From: Acidobacteriota bacterium
Lineage (GTDB): Bacteria > Acidobacteriota > Thermoanaerobaculia > Thermoanaerobaculales > Sulfomarinibacteraceae
Length of the DNA: 64,000 bases
Assembly (NCBI GenBank): GCA_033791425.1
Contig: JASJGQ010000261.1
Span: 3,068 to 67,067, forward strand
Reading direction: 5' to 3'
Part shown: positions 6,982-19,186 of the stretch, one piece after another
Layout: every line of letters begins with the position of its first letter
How positions within the stretch are numbered: the stretch's first letter is position 1
Position numbers and translations under genes: made by a program
The notes under the pieces: generated by a model
Told to the model about the DNA's origin: nothing
Databases searched by the model: none
Seen by the model: the letters and a program-made list of their open reading frames with translations, nothing else

Positions 6982-7674
6982 TCACTCCAGGGGTAAGTCG
7001 ATACGGTCGTCGATCAGGGCCCGCATGATGCGGTCTCGCGAAGAATGAATCTGTTGGCGGAGGCAGTCTGCAGCCTCCTCCGCCTTCTCCGGTTGCAACA
7101 GTTGCACCAGCTCTTCATGCTCGGTCCGCATCTCGGTAGCGAAATCCCCGAGATCGAGCCCGAGAAAAAAGTAGCGCTGCATCGTACTCAAAAGGTCGCG
7201 CAGGACAGCGACCAGGCGGTCGTTTCGCGACAGAGCCGCGAGCTGGATGTGAAAATCGAAGTTGCGATCGAGGAAGTCGGCGTACGAGGCCCAATCGTGG
7301 TAGGTGTATTCGGTCGCCGCGAGCGTTGTCAAACGTTCGCGCTCGTCGGGGGTCGCACGGCGTGCAGCAAGTTCGATGGCGTGGGTTTCGAGTACATCGC
7401 GGAGATCAAAGGAGTCGCCGATTTCTTTCAACGAAATCTGATTGACGAAGTATCCCTTATAGGGCAGAGAGGTGAGAAGCCCTTCCTGTTGCAGCCTGCT
7501 GCAGGCCTCTCGAACCGGGACCCGGCTCGAACCATAGAGTCCGGCGAGCTCCGTTTCGGTGAGGGAGGCACCGGGCCGGTGGCGCAACATGATGATGTCG
7601 CGCTTGAGGCCGCGATAGACGTCCTCCGCCACCGTCCGCCGTTCCACCACAGAGCCTAGAGCTTCATCCCGCAT
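6982..7674 (-). CDS. GntR family transcriptional regulator (FadR/FCD-type C-terminal domain)
   Basis: It has a winged-helix region (LTETELAGLYGSSRVPVREACSRLQQEGLL) and a helical C-terminal domain. I trimmed the start to ATG 7674 because the first 12 codons of the ORF are a promoter/operator. Confidence 0.8.
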   Translation of the reverse strand: MRDEALGSVVERRTVAEDVYRGLKRDIIMLRHRPGASLTETELAGLYGSSRVPVREACSRLQQEGLLTSLPYKGYFVNQISLKEIGDSFDLRDVLETHAIELAARRATPDERERLTTLAATEYTYHDWASYADFLDRNFDFHIQLAALSRNDRLVAVLRDLLSTMQRYFFLGLDLGDFATEMRTEHEELVQLLQPEKAEEAADCLRQQIHSSRDRIMRALIDDRIDLPLE

Positions 7675-10039: not shown

Positions 10040-12028
10040 TCACTCTTCGATTTCGACGATCGGCAAGATTCCGGCGGCCGTGATCTGCAACTCGTCCCAC
10101 CGCACCAGACCGCTCAAGGCCTGATTCACGGTTTCCACCGATACCGAAAGGATGTTCATTTCCATTTCCGACGCCTGCTGCCATCGTGCCGCGCCGGCTG
10201 CAACCGCCGCGCACCGGCGGGCTCGACCCGTCGCACCGCTCCAACGGGCGGCCGCGACAGCGGCAACCCGGCGCCGTGCGGGTGTCAGCTCGTCCTCTTC
10301 CGCCGGTGCCGTCAGCGCGCTCCAGCTCTCCTGCAAACTGTTCTCGAGATCCTCCAGCGGCGACACCGCAGTCACCACCAGCAACAACACAGAACGTCCA
10401 GGCACATAGGGCGCGAGCACCTCAACATCAGCTCCCGCAAACAACGCGGACCCGCGACCGAGCAACAGCTCCGCCAGGACCAGGGGTTGCGCCTCACCGA
10501 GAGCGACTGGAATGTCGAGGGTCAGAACCACAGAGGACTGTTTCCCCGCAACCGCCTCGCGGGTCTTCGGCACCGGCGGCAACGTTTGTCCGGAAGTCAC
10601 GCGAACGGTTCTGTTGCCAATCGTCCAGAATTTTCGAACCGCCTCTGCGGCCGCCTCGCCATCCTCGGCGACAACGCCGATGGCGAGATTTTCCTGACGC
10701 AAAAGAGTGATCGCAGTCAACTCGAAACCCTCTGCGACGCCGAGAACACCCGCCGTCATTCGGAGCGCCCGGCGACGGGCGTCACCCGGCGCAAACGGGA
10801 TCGAGCGCTGATCCGCCGCCACCCGCTCGGTGGCGGCACGAAGAGCCTCGACGAGCTCTGCAAACTGCCCGGAGGGCGATGCGATCTCGAGACGGGGCGG
10901 GCTGGATCCGACTTCCACCCAGCCGGGACGTTCAGCGCCCGCGCGCAATTCGCGCGCAACCTTCGTGAGGATCGTCGCCGCCATTTCGTTGTCGAGGTCG
11001 GGGATGACAACCGGCCGCAGACAGACGACCCCCAGCGGCGTACCCGGTCTCTCGAGAATGGCCGCCATGAGACCGCTTTCGAGTTGAAGCACATTCGGCG
11101 GAGAGGCGAATCGCGGGTTGAGGGCCTGCGGCGGCAGCACCACGACCACGCTGCCAGGATGCTGCGGGAGCCAAACTCGAGCAGCTTCGCGAACTCCACC
11201 CAGGGTGACGCCCTCGGCGGCAAAGAGGTACTCACGGACCGCGGCGATTCCGCCCGCGGTCCACAATTCGAGGAGGTGCAGTGCCGCCTCCGGATGTTTT
11301 TCCAGGAGGGCGCGGCGTTGAACCAGGAGCCTCTGCGCCGCAGCCTCGACCTGGTCGCCCTTGAGGCGGGGGTCTTCCGAGATCCGCGCGAGCCCGATGC
11401 GCAGTTTGGTGAGCTCGAGGTCCACCCTATCGGCATTTACCCGCGCTTCGAGGATCCCCCGCGGGCCCTCGGTTCGGCTCTGGAGTCCCGCTAGATCTCC
11501 GGACAGGATCTCGGGCAGGAGATCCCAGAGAACCTCCGCTGGAGTTCGATTTGGATCGGACGGTGCCGGCAGATTGACCTGAAGCCTGATCTCGGCTTCC
11601 GAACCAGGCGGGCCGAGACGGCGCTCCATCCGGGCCTCGTCAACATATTCGCGAACCTGCACTTGGATACGTCCCGCGGTCCGTCCTGCAAATGATCTCT
11701 CCAGCACCCCGCGGAGCTCCACGAGGGGGACACCACCGGCAGCAATCACCACGGGCGGCGCAGGGCCGTCGGGTGACAAGGCCAGCGCCGCCTCGAGATC
11801 GGCGATCAACGTCATTTCGCCGCTGGTGACCACGAGGGCCATCTCTTCAGCTACAGCCGGCCACGCTACCGTCGTAGCATCGGACATGGGCTCTTCAACC
11901 ACTATGAGGACCGTACCGTTGGACAGACGCTCCGTGTGGAGAGCCTGGGCCTCCACTGACGCGGCGCTGCCGTAAGCGACAGTCGCCAACGCCAATAAGC
12001 ACTGTAGACACGAGCGTTTCACCTTCAT
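10040..12028 (-). CDS. Secreted protein with distant, degenerate pitrilysin (M16)-like two-lobe organisation; no HxxEH zinc motif
   Basis: The signal peptide is MKVKRSCLQCLLALATVAYGSAASVEA. Both halves open with an M16-like strand (ERLSNGTVLIVVEEP... and LESGLMAAILERPGTP...). I saw no HxxEH motif anywhere. The ORF track start (12256) was trimmed. Confidence 0.5.
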   Translation of the reverse strand: MKVKRSCLQCLLALATVAYGSAASVEAQALHTERLSNGTVLIVVEEPMSDATTVAWPAVAEEMALVVTSGEMTLIADLEAALALSPDGPAPPVVIAAGGVPLVELRGVLERSFAGRTAGRIQVQVREYVDEARMERRLGPPGSEAEIRLQVNLPAPSDPNRTPAEVLWDLLPEILSGDLAGLQSRTEGPRGILEARVNADRVDLELTKLRIGLARISEDPRLKGDQVEAAAQRLLVQRRALLEKHPEAALHLLELWTAGGIAAVREYLFAAEGVTLGGVREAARVWLPQHPGSVVVVLPPQALNPRFASPPNVLQLESGLMAAILERPGTPLGVVCLRPVVIPDLDNEMAATILTKVARELRAGAERPGWVEVGSSPPRLEIASPSGQFAELVEALRAATERVAADQRSIPFAPGDARRRALRMTAGVLGVAEGFELTAITLLRQENLAIGVVAEDGEAAAEAVRKFWTIGNRTVRVTSGQTLPPVPKTREAVAGKQSSVVLTLDIPVALGEAQPLVLAELLLGRGSALFAGADVEVLAPYVPGRSVLLLVVTAVSPLEDLENSLQESWSALTAPAEEDELTPARRRVAAVAAARWSGATGRARRCAAVAAGAARWQQASEMEMNILSVSVETVNQALSGLVRWDELQITAAGILPIVEIEE

Positions 12029-12968
12029 GGCGGCCGTCATGGTAGCATGCCGACCAATGCGCATCGATACCCACGCAACAGCTGTGTCGGCCATCGCCAT
12101 CTCGTGGTTGGCAGCGATCACAGCATTGGGATCCACTCTCTTGCTGGCCGTCGTCGGCCAGGGTTTGGGCGCTGTGGCGGGGGGCTGTGGCTGGATCGGG
12201 GCGACCTTTCCCCTGGACCGCCAGGTCTGGGCGTTGGTCAACCAGCCCACCCTCAACTTTTCGTCGTTGCCGAGCGCGGGTGGCTACTGGCTCGGATCGA
12301 TGGTGTTGCCATTGCTCGCCGCTCTGTTCCTGCTCACTCTACGACCTCGAAAGCCGACCCTGGTCGGCCAACTGGTGGTGGTTCAGATGGCCTGGTGGGC
12401 AGCTCTGGTGGCGGGGACGTGGCTCCCTCTCCTGGATCCGGTCGATGGCCACCTCTCGAGGTGGTTGCTGTTGCACCGACTCCCAGCAACGCTGGTGTGG
12501 TCCGTCCCCGCGGTGGCGGCGGTTGTCGCCGTGTTCGCGACCTTGCGAGTGCTCGAAATAGCCCGCGGCTCGCGCTCTGACCTCGGCCGCGGTGCCCGGG
12601 AAGGAATCATCGTCGTCCACCTCGTCCTTCCGGTCCTGGGTTGGATCGGCACGATTTTTCTTGTCGCGGGTTCGTTGCCCCCGGCTCCGGTCATCGGGCT
12701 CGCGGTGCCGGTGGCTGCCGCGCTGGTGTTCGGTTGGTTTCGGTATCCCCCTCCCTACCCCCGCCCGCTGCGCGCGCCTTCGCGCCACGCTGTCGTTGCC
12801 CTCCTTGGCGGGGCCCTGTTCGCGGCGGGCGCGATCTGGATGGGAGGTCGTCCGCTTTCCGACGGCCACACGGCGGGCGTGTTATGGGGCAACCCTGGAA
12901 GTTTCAACAATATTCGACCGTGGATCGAGTTCCCCTCGTCCGCGGCGGAGGGACACGATGATGGCTGA
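12027..12968 (+). CDS. Polytopic inner-membrane protein, unknown family
   Basis: It has several hydrophobic helices and a Pro-rich loop (RYPPPYPRPLRAP). The start is uncertain (ATG 12027, 12039 or 12057). Confidence 0.5.
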   Translation: MAAVMVACRPMRIDTHATAVSAIAISWLAAITALGSTLLLAVVGQGLGAVAGGCGWIGATFPLDRQVWALVNQPTLNFSSLPSAGGYWLGSMVLPLLAALFLLTLRPRKPTLVGQLVVVQMAWWAALVAGTWLPLLDPVDGHLSRWLLLHRLPATLVWSVPAVAAVVAVFATLRVLEIARGSRSDLGRGAREGIIVVHLVLPVLGWIGTIFLVAGSLPPAPVIGLAVPVAAALVFGWFRYPPPYPRPLRAPSRHAVVALLGGALFAAGAIWMGGRPLSDGHTAGVLWGNPGSFNNIRPWIEFPSSAAEGHDDG

Positions 12969-14556: not shown

Positions 14557-15936
14557 ATGATCAATGGATGTCTAGATCGGCTCCACTTCGGGGACCTTCT
14601 CCAATGGTTCCATATGGGCAACGTCAGTGGCCGTCTCAGCCTTCAGGGCAGCCGTGGCGAGCGCCGGCTTGATTTCAGCCGTGGCAAGGTGTGCTTTGTC
14701 TCTTCGACCGTACCCGAGGAACGTCTCGCGTCCTGGATCGCCGCGGGAAGTCTCCTCAACCCCGACCACCTCCGCCGGGTCCTGGCGCATTCGATGCTTC
14801 GGCGCGAGCTTTTCACCGACCTGCTACTGGCCGAGGGCCAGTTCAACGCAGATCAGCTCAAAGAGAGTCTGACCGAACTCGCCGAGGCCGTGACCGGGCG
14901 GGTTCTCTCGTCACCTCAGGTCGACTTTTCCTTCGATCCCGACTATCCGGTCCTCGATGTTCTCGGTCTCAGACTCGATGTGGCGCCGAACCAACTTCTT
15001 CTGGAGGCCGCCCGCCGCTCCGACGAAGGGGACCTCGGAACACCGGACGGCGACCGTCACGAGTTGCCGCTTGGCGGCGAGGCCTTCGAGAGCCTGTTCT
15101 GGGATCTGGTTCGAGATGGCATTTCAGCTGATGACCCGGTTGACGGGGCGAGGTTGACGGCGTTTCATAATCTCGTTCAGGACATCGTGAATACGCTCGC
15201 GCAATGGCTGGCTTCTAGCCCCGGGTTGGTCCCGTTGCCGAAGAGTCAGGTCGCTGCCATCTCGGGGGATGTCATCGGCCGGGACGCCGAGGAGCTCTTC
15301 GGCCTGCCCCACGCCACCTGGGACCAAATGGTTCTCGCCCGTGCCCTCCATATTTCCGGACACGAGGGCCCCTTCACGATGGCCGAGATCGAAAAAGCGA
15401 CCGCTGAAATCGACATTGTTCCCGACCTCGTGGCCGCCGACTTTCTTCACCGTCCCGATGCCGGCAGACTCGACCGGCTCGTCCGTCGGCTGGTCAGCGT
15501 GTGGTCCCGGACAGCCGCGGCGGCAGCGCCCCACCTCGGCGTCGATCCACGCACCGCGACGCTAGCTGTCCACCTGGTGTCGGTCCCGACGGATCTTGTG
15601 TTGTGGGTTCTAACCACGTTGCCGGTACCCCATCGTCAGCTCCGCAAGGCCCTCCTGATCCACCTCTCACGGCGTGTGGGCTCTCGTCTGGCGCGACTGG
15701 CAGACTTTCCAACACCTTTCCGGGAAATTGTCAGCCCGCAGACTCCAACCCCTCTCGGCATCTGTCTCAACCTCGGCCGTCGCTGCCTTCCGACGGTTGC
15801 AGGGTGGCCGGCAACGGTTCCTGAAGACAGCGATGTGGAACTCGATTTTGCCTCGTCAGCGGCTCTGGCGATGGCGGAAGATGCTGCCCGCCAGACGGCG
15901 GCAGAGACCGACGCCGACGTTCTCGCGATAGGCTAA
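14557..15936 (+). CDS. DUF4388 (PatA-N-like) domain protein with a roughly 330-aa uncharacterised C-terminal region
   Basis: The N-terminus LDRLHFGDLLQWFHMGNVSGRLSLQGSRGERRLDFSRGKVCFVSS...RLASWI...LLNPDHLRRVL matches the DUF4388 pattern. I trimmed from 13894 because the upstream part is antisense to the RimK-like gene. The alternative start is ATG 14509. Confidence 0.65.
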   Translation: MINGCLDRLHFGDLLQWFHMGNVSGRLSLQGSRGERRLDFSRGKVCFVSSTVPEERLASWIAAGSLLNPDHLRRVLAHSMLRRELFTDLLLAEGQFNADQLKESLTELAEAVTGRVLSSPQVDFSFDPDYPVLDVLGLRLDVAPNQLLLEAARRSDEGDLGTPDGDRHELPLGGEAFESLFWDLVRDGISADDPVDGARLTAFHNLVQDIVNTLAQWLASSPGLVPLPKSQVAAISGDVIGRDAEELFGLPHATWDQMVLARALHISGHEGPFTMAEIEKATAEIDIVPDLVAADFLHRPDAGRLDRLVRRLVSVWSRTAAAAAPHLGVDPRTATLAVHLVSVPTDLVLWVLTTLPVPHRQLRKALLIHLSRRVGSRLARLADFPTPFREIVSPQTPTPLGICLNLGRRCLPTVAGWPATVPEDSDVELDFASSAALAMAEDAARQTAAETDADVLAIG

Positions 15937-15958: not shown

Positions 15959-18133
15959 TTACTGCGGCAGAGCGATCACAACCTCGGTGCCCTCACCAAA
16001 GGTACTGGCAATCGTGATCGTACCCCCGTGGATCGTCGCCACCCTGTCCGCGATCGCGAGACCGAGTCCGATGCCGTGTCGTTTGCCGGCCGTCGAATCG
16101 TCGCCCTGCCAGAAGGCCTCACGAACCCGATCAAGGTCGGTCTCCGGGATCCCCACGCCGACATCGCTGACACGCAGCTGCAGCCATCTTTCGTCGCCTC
16201 GCGTCACCCGACGGACTTCGAGTTTGACCTCACCACCTTCGTGACTGAATTCGACCCCGTTTCTGACCACCGCCCGAAGGGCCGCTTCGATGCTCTCACG
16301 GTCGCACGAAATCGTCTCGAGCCCGCTCGGAATCAACATCACGATATTGACCTTGCGGTCTTTTACGAGATCCCGAAGAGGCGCTATTGCCTGCCGGAAG
16401 AGCTCCTGCGCCGGCACCGGTCGGCACACGAGGTCACGACCCCCCCCACCCAGCACCGAAACTTGAAAGATACTCTGGATCATCTCCAGAAGCTTTTCAC
16501 TCTCGTCGTGGATGATCGCCACCAGGCGGCGCGCCTTGTCGGCTGGAATGTCCTCGTCACGCTCGAGGATCTTCGCGGCAGTGAACAGCGAGGTGACAGG
16601 GGTCTTGAATTCGAGCGAGAGACGGTTGATGAGCTCGTTCTTGACGCCGTCAAGGGTGGCGAGGTCCCGATACGCCTCTTCGAGAAGAGACTTCTTTTCC
16701 GCCAGATCGTCGGCCAGGCGCCTCGATTGGGCGAGTGAATTTCTCAGCTCCGATGTGCGTTCAGCGACCTGCTCCTCGAGGCCCCGGCTGAGTTCTTCCA
16801 TCTGTTTCCAGGCGATCGCATTGGCGTAACCCATGGCGGCGGCGGACACGAGAACCGACACCAACTGGAGATCATCCTCGTCAAGATCGTTGCGTTCGGC
16901 GTCTCCAAATACCGTCACGAGGCCAATGATCTTGTCCTGGGTCTGGAGTGGCACGGCGATCGCCGATGCAAAACCGGCTCTCTCCACGACAGCCATCGCC
17001 TCCGCTGCGACATCATCACCCACCGTCATGGTCACGAGGTGCGGCGCCTGACGATCGAGCAGAGTTGCCGCCATCGAGCGTCCCTGTTCATCGACTTCGC
17101 TATTAAAAGGGTCATTGCTGAAGCCGTGAACCACTGCTTCTCGGAGTTGGCCGGAGGTCGGAACGATCAAGGCCGCGGCGCCCTGGACTTCAAGCAACTT
17201 GATGGCTGTCGATATCAGGAGCCTCAACACCGATGCCGGGTCGCGTTCGTTGCCTACAGCACGGCCGTATTCGGAAATCCCGGCCATCACCCGAACCTTG
17301 CGCTCGAGAAGTCGGCTCAGGCTGTCCAGACGTGTATTGAGTTCTCCCATGACCAGATTGGCCCGCAAGGCCTCGGCCACGAGGTCATCATCGGTCAAAG
17401 CCTCACCCGACGGGTCGTCGCGTTCGGCGACAGTGATCTCAATGTCGTCAGCCGGAAGGGGTGCTCCACCGGCGGCGAGAAACGGCTCCATCGAAGCGTT
17501 CATCTGGTAGCGGAGGCGGTCAAGGGCCTGCGGATTGTCGCCGACGCCGAGCTTGTCGGCGACTGTCACCAGCGTCAGCTCGCCGATCGCCTTGAAGGCC
17601 TCGAGCACTCCGTCGCCGGTGGTCGCCACGGTAGGAAACGAAGGTAGCCCCTGTGGGTTGAGGGCGGCCTCCATTTCTTCAAGGCTCAGGATCGGACTCA
17701 GGTCGCGCTTGTTGAACTGAAATACTATCGGGAGGCCCTGGACATCGAGGCTGTTGGCGGCGAGGTTATGTTTCAGATTCTGAAGCGACTCGACATTGTG
17801 CTCTCGCTGATCGATCTGTGAGTCCGCCACAAAGACGACTCCATCGGCGCCCGCGAGGACGGTTCGTCTGGTGGCGTCGTACTGCACCTGGCCCGGCACG
17901 GTATAGAGCTGGAGAGAGAGGCGAAAATCTCGAATTCGACCGAGATTGAGCGACAAGAGGTCAAAAAAGAGCGTCCGGTCGGCAGCCGTGTTGAGAGAGT
18001 AGAGTCGTGTGCGACGCTCGGGATCGAGGACGCGGTGTATCTGCTGGAGCGATGTCGTCTTTCCGCCGGTGGCCGGCCCGTAGTAGACGATCTTGATTTT
18101 GACCTGGCGGTTTTTGTTGTCGAACTGAACCAT
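15959..18133 (-). CDS. Fusion protein: MglA-type small GTPase + GAF domain + histidine-kinase core (degenerate H-box, intact HATPase_c)
   Basis: Residues 1-195 are collinear with MglA: KIKIVYYGPATGGKTT, DRTLFFD, YTVPGQ, QFNKRD, ATTGDGV. A GAF-like region spans about residues 296-440. A coiled coil is followed by the DHp helix RLSLEFKTPVTSL. The N box (VVRNGVEFS), G1 (DVGVGI) and G2 (GIGLGL) are present. No TM segment was seen. Confidence 0.85.
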   Translation of the reverse strand: MVQFDNKNRQVKIKIVYYGPATGGKTTSLQQIHRVLDPERRTRLYSLNTAADRTLFFDLLSLNLGRIRDFRLSLQLYTVPGQVQYDATRRTVLAGADGVVFVADSQIDQREHNVESLQNLKHNLAANSLDVQGLPIVFQFNKRDLSPILSLEEMEAALNPQGLPSFPTVATTGDGVLEAFKAIGELTLVTVADKLGVGDNPQALDRLRYQMNASMEPFLAAGGAPLPADDIEITVAERDDPSGEALTDDDLVAEALRANLVMGELNTRLDSLSRLLERKVRVMAGISEYGRAVGNERDPASVLRLLISTAIKLLEVQGAAALIVPTSGQLREAVVHGFSNDPFNSEVDEQGRSMAATLLDRQAPHLVTMTVGDDVAAEAMAVVERAGFASAIAVPLQTQDKIIGLVTVFGDAERNDLDEDDLQLVSVLVSAAAMGYANAIAWKQMEELSRGLEEQVAERTSELRNSLAQSRRLADDLAEKKSLLEEAYRDLATLDGVKNELINRLSLEFKTPVTSLFTAAKILERDEDIPADKARRLVAIIHDESEKLLEMIQSIFQVSVLGGGGRDLVCRPVPAQELFRQAIAPLRDLVKDRKVNIVMLIPSGLETISCDRESIEAALRAVVRNGVEFSHEGGEVKLEVRRVTRGDERWLQLRVSDVGVGIPETDLDRVREAFWQGDDSTAGKRHGIGLGLAIADRVATIHGGTITIASTFGEGTEVVIALPQ

Positions 18134-18182: not shown

Positions 18183-19055
18183 CTACCCGCCATTCGAGGG
18201 CTTGTCCGGACGCCCCTTTTTCCGGGGGGATTTCTTGGCCACCGAGACACCGACCCGTGAGGCTTCGGCAAAAACGTAGCTCGGGTCCCCGGTCTTCTGA
18301 TTGATGATCGTCGCATAGGGAAATACAAGCGCAGTGTCGGGCCCGGAATCGAGGTAAAAGACCAGGCTCCCGCCCTCGAGGATTGTGCCGAGCCGTCGTT
18401 GGGTGTGACCAAACGGAGGGACGTCGAAGAACTCGGAGTCCAGGACGGCGCCATCGGCGCTCTGGATATCGAGACGGATTGTGGTCCACTCGGCCGTCCA
18501 CGAAGCAATGCCGACGTTGCAGCGAAAATATTCCCCATCGTTGAGGATTCCAGCCGCGTAGGCGAGGGACTCCCAATCGGTTCCCCGCTCGACACCCGCT
18601 CCGAAAACCGTCAGGCCAAACTCGCCATCGCCGCTCGCGTCCGGTGTGTAGGTCCGCGACGTGGTCAGGAAGTGACAGTCCTCGATCGGGTCGCAGGCCA
18701 GGGCCGTGTCGGCGTAGGCGAGGATCGCCGCCGTACCTTCAAGATCGAAGACCTCGGGCCCCAGAACATCCCACAGGTTCAGTGTCTGCCACGGAGAGAG
18801 GGTGATGGTGAGGGTCGGCACCACGGTGTTCTCGGTATCGGTGGGCAGGGCCTGGACCACGACCGGCAGGTCATACTCGTGGGGATTGTGGAGCGACAGG
18901 TCCGTTCTCCAAAAGGTGTTGCGGGCCCCGGCGTTGGAGGCGGCCGCAGGTATCATCCAGTCGGCAGACAGCTGCGCCGCCGCCGGGAGGGCGAATCCCG
19001 AGATCACGACCCATCCGCAGAAGACGGCTCGACGAACGATGGTCGATTTCACCAT
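18183..19055 (-). CDS. Secreted beta-rich protein, unknown family
   Basis: The signal peptide is MVKSTIVRRAVFCGWVVISGFALPAAAQ and an SD (GGAGG) precedes ATG 19055. It ends 49 nt upstream of the GTPase-kinase gene on the same strand. The C-terminal tail is basic (KKSPRKKGRPDKP). Confidence 0.6.
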   Translation of the reverse strand: MVKSTIVRRAVFCGWVVISGFALPAAAQLSADWMIPAAASNAGARNTFWRTDLSLHNPHEYDLPVVVQALPTDTENTVVPTLTITLSPWQTLNLWDVLGPEVFDLEGTAAILAYADTALACDPIEDCHFLTTSRTYTPDASGDGEFGLTVFGAGVERGTDWESLAYAAGILNDGEYFRCNVGIASWTAEWTTIRLDIQSADGAVLDSEFFDVPPFGHTQRRLGTILEGGSLVFYLDSGPDTALVFPYATIINQKTGDPSYVFAEASRVGVSVAKKSPRKKGRPDKPSNGG

Positions 19056-19186
19056 GGCAACCTCCGACCACTTGATAGGCAAGGATCGTGCCACCGCCTG
19101 GGTCGTTGCACCGCACCCTCCCCGCACGAATGTGTCCTCCAAAGAGGACGACGGCCAGGACCACATATACTTGAAACGGAGGCTGA

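Follow-up and report, generated by a model that had tools for sequence, protein, structure and literature searches.

In a 64,000-nucleotide stretch of contig JASJGQ010000261.1 (positions 3,068 to 67,067 of the forward strand; hereafter the window) from an Acidobacteriota (Thermoanaerobaculia) metagenome-assembled genome (MAG), a gene was found on the minus strand whose product joins an MglA-type small GTPase domain to a GAF domain and a histidine kinase module with leucine in place of the phospho-accepting histidine. The product is identical to NCBI MDX2437462.1, titled 'ATP-binding protein [Acidobacteriota bacterium]', and the exact protein occurs on three contigs, its cluster having four members. 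In public records the protein goes by 'ATP-binding protein' or 'GAF domain-containing sensor histidine kinase', names that point to automated pipelines over-calling the protein as an ordinary kinase. A preliminary description of this DNA treated it as a plain sensor kinase and overlooked the MglA GTPase and the GAF domain that precede the kinase module. The features of the gene are as follows.

15959..18133, minus strand: whole gene, 724 aa, encoding MglA GTPase, coiled coil, GAF, signalling helix, DHp (HisKA without His) and CA (HATPase_c)
17564..18133, minus strand: MglA-type small GTPase domain, residues 1-190 (phmmer against PDB, and motifs)
17246..17563, minus strand: linker, residues 191-296, made up of a low-confidence acidic segment and then a long helix (predicted at 248-295) running into GAF
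16832..17245, minus strand: GAF domain, residues 297-434 (Pfam GAF and GAF_2, E about 8e-9)
16643..16831, minus strand: GAF-to-DHp signalling helix, residues 435-497 (helix predicted at 419-476 and 478-525)
16457..16642, minus strand: DHp / HisKA domain, residues 498-559 (Pfam HisKA PF00512, 30.2 bits, cut-off 26.9)
16586..16630, minus strand: H-box, residues 502-516, I-NRLS-L-EFKTPVTSL, the interval flagged in the preliminary description
16613..16615, minus strand: acceptor-site Leu507, codon CTC (CAC or CAT in His-bearing orthologues)
16601..16612, minus strand: E508-F-K-T511, the E/D-x-x-T/N motif directly after the acceptor position
16508..16510, minus strand: His542, earlier put forward as a substitute acceptor, in a variable column
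15965..16303, minus strand: CA / HATPase_c domain, residues 611-723 (Pfam HATPase_c PF02518, E=8e-21)
16259-16261 (N625), 16151-16165 (G1, D657-G661) and 16061-16075 (G2, G687-G691), minus strand: ATP boxes in CA, together with F674

A Pfam scan of the linker (residues 191-296) gave no match, and its helix and the signalling helix were taken from an AlphaFold 2 (AF2) run on the full protein with a 73-row alignment. The resulting model had a mean predicted local distance difference test (pLDDT) score of 65 and a predicted template modelling (pTM) score of 0.32, and only its secondary structure was used. Across the MglA domain the pLDDT was 31-46, despite 52% identity to a solved MglA; the model is likely poor because every row of the alignment is at least 62% identical to the query, making the alignment too shallow.

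Residues 503-516 of the product read NRLSLEFKTPVTSL. In a phmmer comparison with PDB chains, the segment 'nrlsLEfktpvt' aligned without gaps to 'nmsHEirtpl' (7z8n), 'tlsHEfrtpl' (6qrj) and 'niSHElrtplt' of HK853 (5uht), indicating that Leu507 sits in the phospho-acceptor column. The Pfam HisKA match at residues 498-559 also places Leu in the acceptor column, and both results bear out the replacement noticed in the preliminary description. A search of 5.8 billion proteins recovered 120 full-length homologues at 62-97% identity to the query, all sharing its architecture, and the column counts given here for close homologues refer to the alignment of these 121 sequences. In this alignment the acceptor column holds Leu in 116 sequences, Ser in four and Gly in one, and His in none; the codon in three related loci is CTC in two and AGC (Ser) in the third. 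Since the acceptor His is replaced within an H-box that aligns with solved ones, autophosphorylation at the canonical site is impossible, as had been stated, and since Leu is conserved across the whole clade, the earlier wording 'pseudokinase or scaffold' is a fair description.

His542, which had been suggested as another phospho-site, was ruled out as a substitute acceptor because its column is not conserved: His is present in only 41 of the 116 Leu-clade sequences, the others having Tyr or Phe, and Arg is found in 24 of 28 His-bearing orthologues. The Leu-clade alignment contains no conserved His in the DHp region (496-560), and the only His residues at 90% or more in this clade are H33 in MglA, H336 in GAF and H702 in the HGG of the CA domain.

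The ATP-binding N, G1 and G2 boxes, described earlier as intact, proved to be invariant: N625, D657-x-G659-x-G661, F674 and G687-x-G689-x-G691 are the same in all 121 sequences. Mean pairwise identity in the Leu clade was.83 for MglA,.78 for DHp and.74 for CA, compared with.78,.74 and.62, respectively, in the His clade, so that neither DHp nor CA shows any relaxation following the loss of the His. These alignments show purifying selection acting on all domains of the gene, and its product is a predicted conserved pseudo-kinase, neither a sequencing error nor a decaying gene.

The N-terminal domain is equally well preserved. Residues 7-189 aligned without gaps to Myxococcus xanthus MglA (6hjh) with 52% identity (E=2e-57, phmmer against PDB). 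The P-loop G19PATGGKT26, the Arg finger R53 beside T54, the G3 motif T78VPGQ82 and the G4 motif N141KRD144 are invariant in the 121 homologues. In the classification of Wuichet and Sogaard-Andersen (PMC4316618), Group 1 MglA proteins are marked out by an Arg finger of their own beside the G2 Thr and by TVPGQ, together with a P-loop of the form GxxxxGK[ST] and a G4 motif NKxD. By its motifs, residues 1-190 are a complete Group 1 MglA-type Ras-like GTPase with all catalytic residues kept. Nearly all of the 150 best-scoring of 1.84 billion cluster representatives (P0121-P0270) are MglA-first proteins of 211-965 aa, an outlier being P0241, which has 2829 aa and matches only via its C-terminal kinase part. 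Among 80 lower-ranked representatives, GAF was found in eight, HATPase_c in four, PAS in three, and GGDEF and REC in one each, the remainder having Pro-rich C-terminal tails with no Pfam match. MglA seems to be a common but little described leading module of larger proteins.

Around the missing His, the H-box has been closely kept. S506, E/D508, T511, P512, T514, S515, T518 and A519 are near-invariant. In the Leu clade, the +1 column holds Asp in 83 sequences and Glu in 33, Thr at +4 is present in 115 of 116, and Pro at +5 is kept. The residues at His+4, +7, +8, +11 and +12 are T, T, S, T and A, respectively, in no fewer than 113 of the 116 sequences, with the same majority residues in the His clade; the last four correspond to T250, R251, L254 and A255 on alpha-1 of EnvZ, which determine its response-regulator specificity (PMC2991266). 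The Leu and His clades have different fixed residues at just six positions, namely 91, 283, 445, 507, 537 and 679. Alongside the loss of the His, residue 542 (16508-16510) shifted from Arg to Tyr, His or Phe, residue 537 (16523-16525) from Phe to Leu, and residue 679 (16097-16099) from Asn to Asp. At position 681 (16091-16093) in the ATP lid, Leu is found in 96% of the His clade and the residue is unconstrained in the Leu clade. These covarying lid and DHp positions are consistent with a putative loss of the lid-to-H-box contact used in autophosphorylation.

Beyond the close homologues the acceptor His reappears. Whether orthologues also lack the His had been raised in the preliminary description; they do so throughout the 121 close homologues, and His-bearing positional orthologues nevertheless exist. 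Among the matches listed from the 1.84 billion cluster representatives, 31 MglA-bearing representatives with an alignable DHp carry His and 10 do not. In P0121, which at 56% identity is the closest outgroup, the H-box is DELIARIS-H-ELKTPVTSL. A search seeded with this protein yielded 36 further relatives, and 28 of the 37 (P0121 counted) have His, the others having S, T, A, R, K or E. The His-bearing P0273, P0271, P0284 and P0294 occupy the syntenic slot of the window gene, bounded by ProDH-ComF-YjbQ on the left and, on the right, by a convergent PATAN gene followed by RimK-ferritin-TyrRS-Fur (ClpB in L088), indicating that they are positional orthologues and not paralogues. The acceptor codon is CTC in the window and at loci L001 and L004, and CAC or CAT at L086 and L085, one transversion apart. 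The existence of His-bearing positional orthologues thus identifies Leu as a derived one-nucleotide replacement.

Changes at the acceptor were counted on a rough neighbour-joining tree of 113 sequences, which has His at its root and the Leu clade nested among His clades, beside a Ser clade. On this tree the acceptor column needs at least 12 changes (Fitch), an average rate that lies at the 41st percentile of all columns, while K498, R504, S506, P512 and A519 show only 0-4 changes. Within this one orthologue group at least nine different residues have taken the place of the acceptor. As far as such a tree can tell, an average rate of change at a phospho-acceptor residue is anomalous. The close orthologues P0300 and P0296 read NELITRVS-R-ELKNPVASLQTAA and NE[L/V]ITRVS-H-ELKNPVASLQTAA, respectively, their H-boxes being otherwise identical except at His-5. 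By this comparison P0300 represents an apparent, very recent loss of His to Arg, separate from that of the Leu clade. A 43% identical relative at 7082..9250 of L006 (Thermoanaerobaculia MAG CAZCEX010000004.1) has MglA, GAF and HATPase_c with the N, G1 and G2 boxes kept, and in its H-box segment neither a recognisable HisKA motif nor a His was found.

Next to the kinase-fusion gene lies a convergent gene, whose stop codon is 22 bp away from that of the fusion:

14557..15936, plus strand: PATAN (DUF4388/PatA_N) protein, about 459 aa (Pfam DUF4388, E=6e-17; start chosen by comparison with L001)

The C-terminal ~300 residues of this protein have no Pfam match. The PATAN-kinase pairing is present in all orthologue loci examined, including those where the right-hand synteny breaks (L085 and L088). 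It is also seen at L008, which holds a 30%-identical relative and where a TPR-DUF4388 gene comes next on the same strand. From this gene order, the PATAN protein is a probable partner of the kinase fusion. In a preprint on Synechocystis (10.1101/2021.06.11.447907), PATAN-domain regulators are reported to bind the type IV pilus motor.

The rest of the window is a housekeeping region (tyrS, ferritin, rimK-like, purD, pta, ruvB, mreB-PBP2-rodA, rho, lon and clpX). Among 31 of its 59 predicted genes, as judged by Pfam, the only signalling candidates besides the kinase gene are a GntR-family regulator and the PATAN protein. Profiles built in this analysis detected no REC-domain gene, second kinase or mglB in the window, and the family's own DHp-CA profile found no second kinase adjoining the Leu-clade genes. 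With an MglB profile iterated from a seed sequence, no mglB/roadblock gene was matched at the window or the fusion loci; many stand-alone mglA loci have mglB directly upstream. Across the close loci examined (the window, L001-L006 and L085-L090), L085 is the only one with adjoining two-component partners. At L085 (6886..10722), the His-bearing P0278 is flanked by a REC-HisKA-HATPase gene, the stop of which overlaps the P0278 start, and by a downstream gene for a 124-aa single-domain response regulator. More distant His-bearing fusions have adjacent regulators in some cases (L007, L009 and L085), and REC is fused in L018, L020 and L029. A correspondence between the presence of His and an adjacent regulator, as L007, L009 and L085 set against the window and L001-L006 might have implied, was rejected for close orthologues, because the His-bearing L086-L089 have no adjoining regulator.

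Several described systems share parts of this arrangement. Functionally the closest is DivL of Caulobacter crescentus, which likewise has an otherwise canonical HisKA H-box, with Tyr550 for His, a DHp-CA fold that is kept, and a replacement conserved in its lineage. DivL is a His-less transmitter that works purely through binding of a phosphorylated regulator: phosphorylated DivK binds its regulator-docking face, and the signal travels 'backwards' to the N-terminal domains (PMC4211667). DivL (4q20) was among the PDB matches of the query with E=1.8e-13, which is the level of kinases in general. It differs in having PAS domains and Tyr at the acceptor, in another phylum, where the window protein has MglA, GAF and Leu, and its partners DivK and CckA have no identified counterpart here. 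Moreover, DivL binds TNP-ATP weakly, with an apparent Kd of 57 uM, and its authors suggest that poor ATP binding underlies the missing kinase activity (PMC4211667), whereas all four ATP boxes are invariant in the proteins studied here.

PsmA, a histidine pseudokinase of the Streptomyces polarisome, also lacks the acceptor His, its orthologues carrying E, D, Q, V or Y, and is also linked to polarity (PMC12963549). In contrast to the window protein, which keeps both, PsmA no longer has the ATP-binding motifs or the phosphatase motif E/DxxT/N (PMC12963549); it has a hybrid PAS architecture and no GTPase.

The GTPase part has the same hallmarks as Group 1 MglA of M. xanthus and Thermus thermophilus, namely the Arg finger beside the G2 Thr, TVPGQ and NKRD. 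Some Group 1 and Group 5 mglA loci also have a nearby PATAN gene (PMC4316618), as does the window gene. MglA proper, however, consists of one domain of about 195 aa, and its gene accompanies that of its GTPase-activating protein (GAP) MglB, whereas here a 724-aa fusion to GAF-DHp-CA was found with no adjacent mglB. The actinobacterial conservons/AGPS (CvnA kinase, CvnB roadblock, CvnC and CvnD GTPase) combine a histidine-kinase-type protein with an MglA-family GTPase without an obvious response regulator (PMC4316618, PMC12236503), and they are the only bacterial system described in which proteins of these two kinds act together. In conservons these are separate proteins of a four-gene operon in Actinomycetota, with a roadblock protein present, a Group 2 GTPase (GTPGQ, NxFD) and, in CvnA8, a kinase that autophosphorylates (PMC12236503). 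None of the operon organization, roadblock, GTPase group or phylum applies here, and membership of the window gene in this group was rejected on the basis of its G3 motif TVPGQ, its G4 motif NKRD, the absence of a roadblock gene and its origin in an Acidobacteriota MAG.

Based on these features, we favour the reading that the gene encodes a functional but kinase-dead transmitter, which binds ATP and docks a response regulator, acts as a phosphatase or as a DivL-like sensor, and is coupled to MglA. Resting on sequence comparison, this reading is given a probability of about 0.55, shared roughly evenly between the phosphatase and the sensor versions. In this model, the ancestor would have been a genuine MglA-GAF-HisKA-HATPase kinase, in which a single A-to-T change, from CAC to CTC, became fixed in one Thermoanaerobaculia lineage. 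The DHp-CA module would still dimerise, bind ATP or ADP, and dock a response regulator without phosphorylating it. The output would be removal or sequestration of the phosphorylated regulator, by a phosphatase-only kinase or a DivL-like sensor, respectively. It would depend on whether the fused MglA carries GTP or GDP and on the ligand of the GAF domain, with control between transmitter and MglA running in either direction, and the always-adjacent PATAN protein would be a likely downstream or polarity partner.

The phosphatase version has a precedent in the same chemistry, namely His-less dephosphorylation with Thr or Asn at +4. HisKA phosphatase activity needs Thr/Asn at this position and often survives loss of the His. 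CrdS H371A keeps its phosphatase activity, the half-life of phosphorylated CrdA being 2.6 min, compared to 0.7 min with the wild type and 53.5 min for CrdA alone, while CrdS N375A loses it (PMC3510030).

Several observations weigh against this reading. Proteins such as CrdS H371A are laboratory mutants, and the effect of the mutation depends on the protein: PleC H610A loses both activities, the phosphatase activity included (PMC3510030). DivL has Thr at +4, yet no phosphatase activity (PMC4211667). The conserved alpha-1 face also packs against the CA domain, so its conservation is no proof of regulator binding. The 64-kb window, like the fetched 5-8 kb flanks of most orthologues, yielded no response regulator gene, which leaves the docking partner hypothetical. 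The L006 relative, with MglA, GAF and CA kept and no H-box, hints at a core function that may need neither phosphotransfer nor the phosphatase motif. The AF2 model, finally, is too poor to be used.

Part of this evidence would be accounted for if the protein were an ATP-dependent scaffold that involves no regulator at all. The DHp-CA part would then provide dimerisation and an ATP-driven clamp, controlling or controlled by the fused MglA, in the manner of a guanine nucleotide exchange factor, a GAP or an effector platform, and the output would pass from MglA-GTP to PATAN. The acceptor residue would be free to vary, as the 12 Fitch changes (41st percentile) and the nine or more replacement residues suggest, and a protein without any H-box could still retain MglA, GAF and CA, as at L006. 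The lack of an adjoining regulator in most orthologues, His-bearing or not, and the survival of the PATAN-kinase gene pair across synteny breakpoints also fit, and conservons show that a histidine-kinase-like protein can be paired with an MglA-like GTPase (PMC4316618, PMC12236503). However, such a scaffold leaves unexplained why the regulator-facing H-box positions are near-invariant and why many orthologues retain the His. Of the alternatives this one survives best, although we regard it as unlikely.

A related and slightly more doubtful possibility is that the Thermoanaerobaculia MglA-GAF-DHp-CA proteins are hybrid switches of G protein and kinase that run opposite to the usual direction, with the transmitter signalling to the GTPase. 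The GTP cycle of the fused MglA would be gated when CA binds ATP, and possibly also when a phosphorylated regulator docks on DHp; MglA would in turn bring in the PATAN protein, through which polarity or the function of type IV pili would be controlled. In such a switch phosphotransfer would be an optional add-on, which would explain why the acceptor His was lost repeatedly in one orthologue group while the rest was kept.

We consider it improbable that the protein works through a heteromeric partner, with its intact CA domain phosphorylating the His of another kinase in a mixed DHp dimer, or with its His-less DHp poisoning a partner kinase, as RetS poisons GacS. RetS chains were among the PDB sequence matches (6dk7), the CA domain is fully intact, and at the His-bearing L085 the fusion gene has a REC-HisKA-HATPase gene running into its start. 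Nevertheless, the family DHp-CA profile revealed no second kinase gene in the window or beside the Leu-clade genes that could supply the partner.

More improbable still is phosphorylation by CA of a Ser, Thr or Tyr, in the protein itself or in a substrate, or of another His such as His542. Kinases acting on residues other than His are exemplified by plant ETR2-type receptors and by PDK/BCKDK and SpoIIAB-type kinases. The intact ATP site, the Ser at the acceptor position in the sister clade and the invariant S506 would agree with such an activity, but S506 is standard in canonical H-boxes too, the replacements L, G, A, K, R, E and D are mostly non-phosphorylatable, His542 is not conserved, and the DHp region holds no conserved His. 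Gene decay, like an artefact of assembly or sequencing, has only the missing His in its favour and is refuted by the full-length open reading frame (ORF), the exact protein on three contigs in a cluster of four, and the at least 116 related cluster representatives that share Leu under strong purifying selection in every domain.

Two points stand out from these observations: the kinase module is joined to MglA, and its acceptor residue has been labile in evolution even inside a single orthologue group. No description of an MglA-histidine-kinase fusion was found in the searchable literature. To our knowledge, His-less histidine kinases are known, DivL and PsmA among them, and few of them are understood; we know of crosstalk between Ras-like GTPases and two-component systems only indirectly, from Frz-RomR-MglA in Myxococcus and from the conservons of actinomycetes. 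The combination of a kinase module with an MglA polarity GTPase in a single polypeptide makes such coupling directly testable. The intact ATP site and H-box also make ATP binding, regulator docking and phosphatase activity separately testable, the natural His-bearing orthologues at the same locus being ready controls and an L507H revertant being one nucleotide away.

A scan of GTDB contigs with a mixed alignment returned, among the matches listed, mostly stand-alone mglA genes and no relatives at 62% identity or more. It also gave the distant fusion loci L005-L009, L017 and L018, as well as mglBA-PATAN operons. Among these listed matches, many of the stand-alone mglA loci (L024-L083) are immediately preceded by mglB, and in roughly half of these the operon also includes one or more PATAN genes, in agreement with the literature (PMC4316618); the loci come from Gemmatimonadota, Nitrospirota, Myxococcota, Planctomycetota, Ignavibacteria and others. 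Some mglB-PATAN operons contain two or three tandem roadblock-like ORFs, of which those in overlapping frames may be artefacts of six-frame extraction.

Two further genes in the window have no Pfam match. The first (18183..19166, minus strand) shares the strand of the kinase gene, from which it is separated by 50 bp on the upstream side, and encodes a 327-aa protein with a signal-peptide-like N-terminus. Genes without a Pfam match that are similar to it in size and position were observed at L001, L004, L085, L088 and L090. The second (10040..12256, minus strand) encodes a conserved 738-aa protein beside tyrS.

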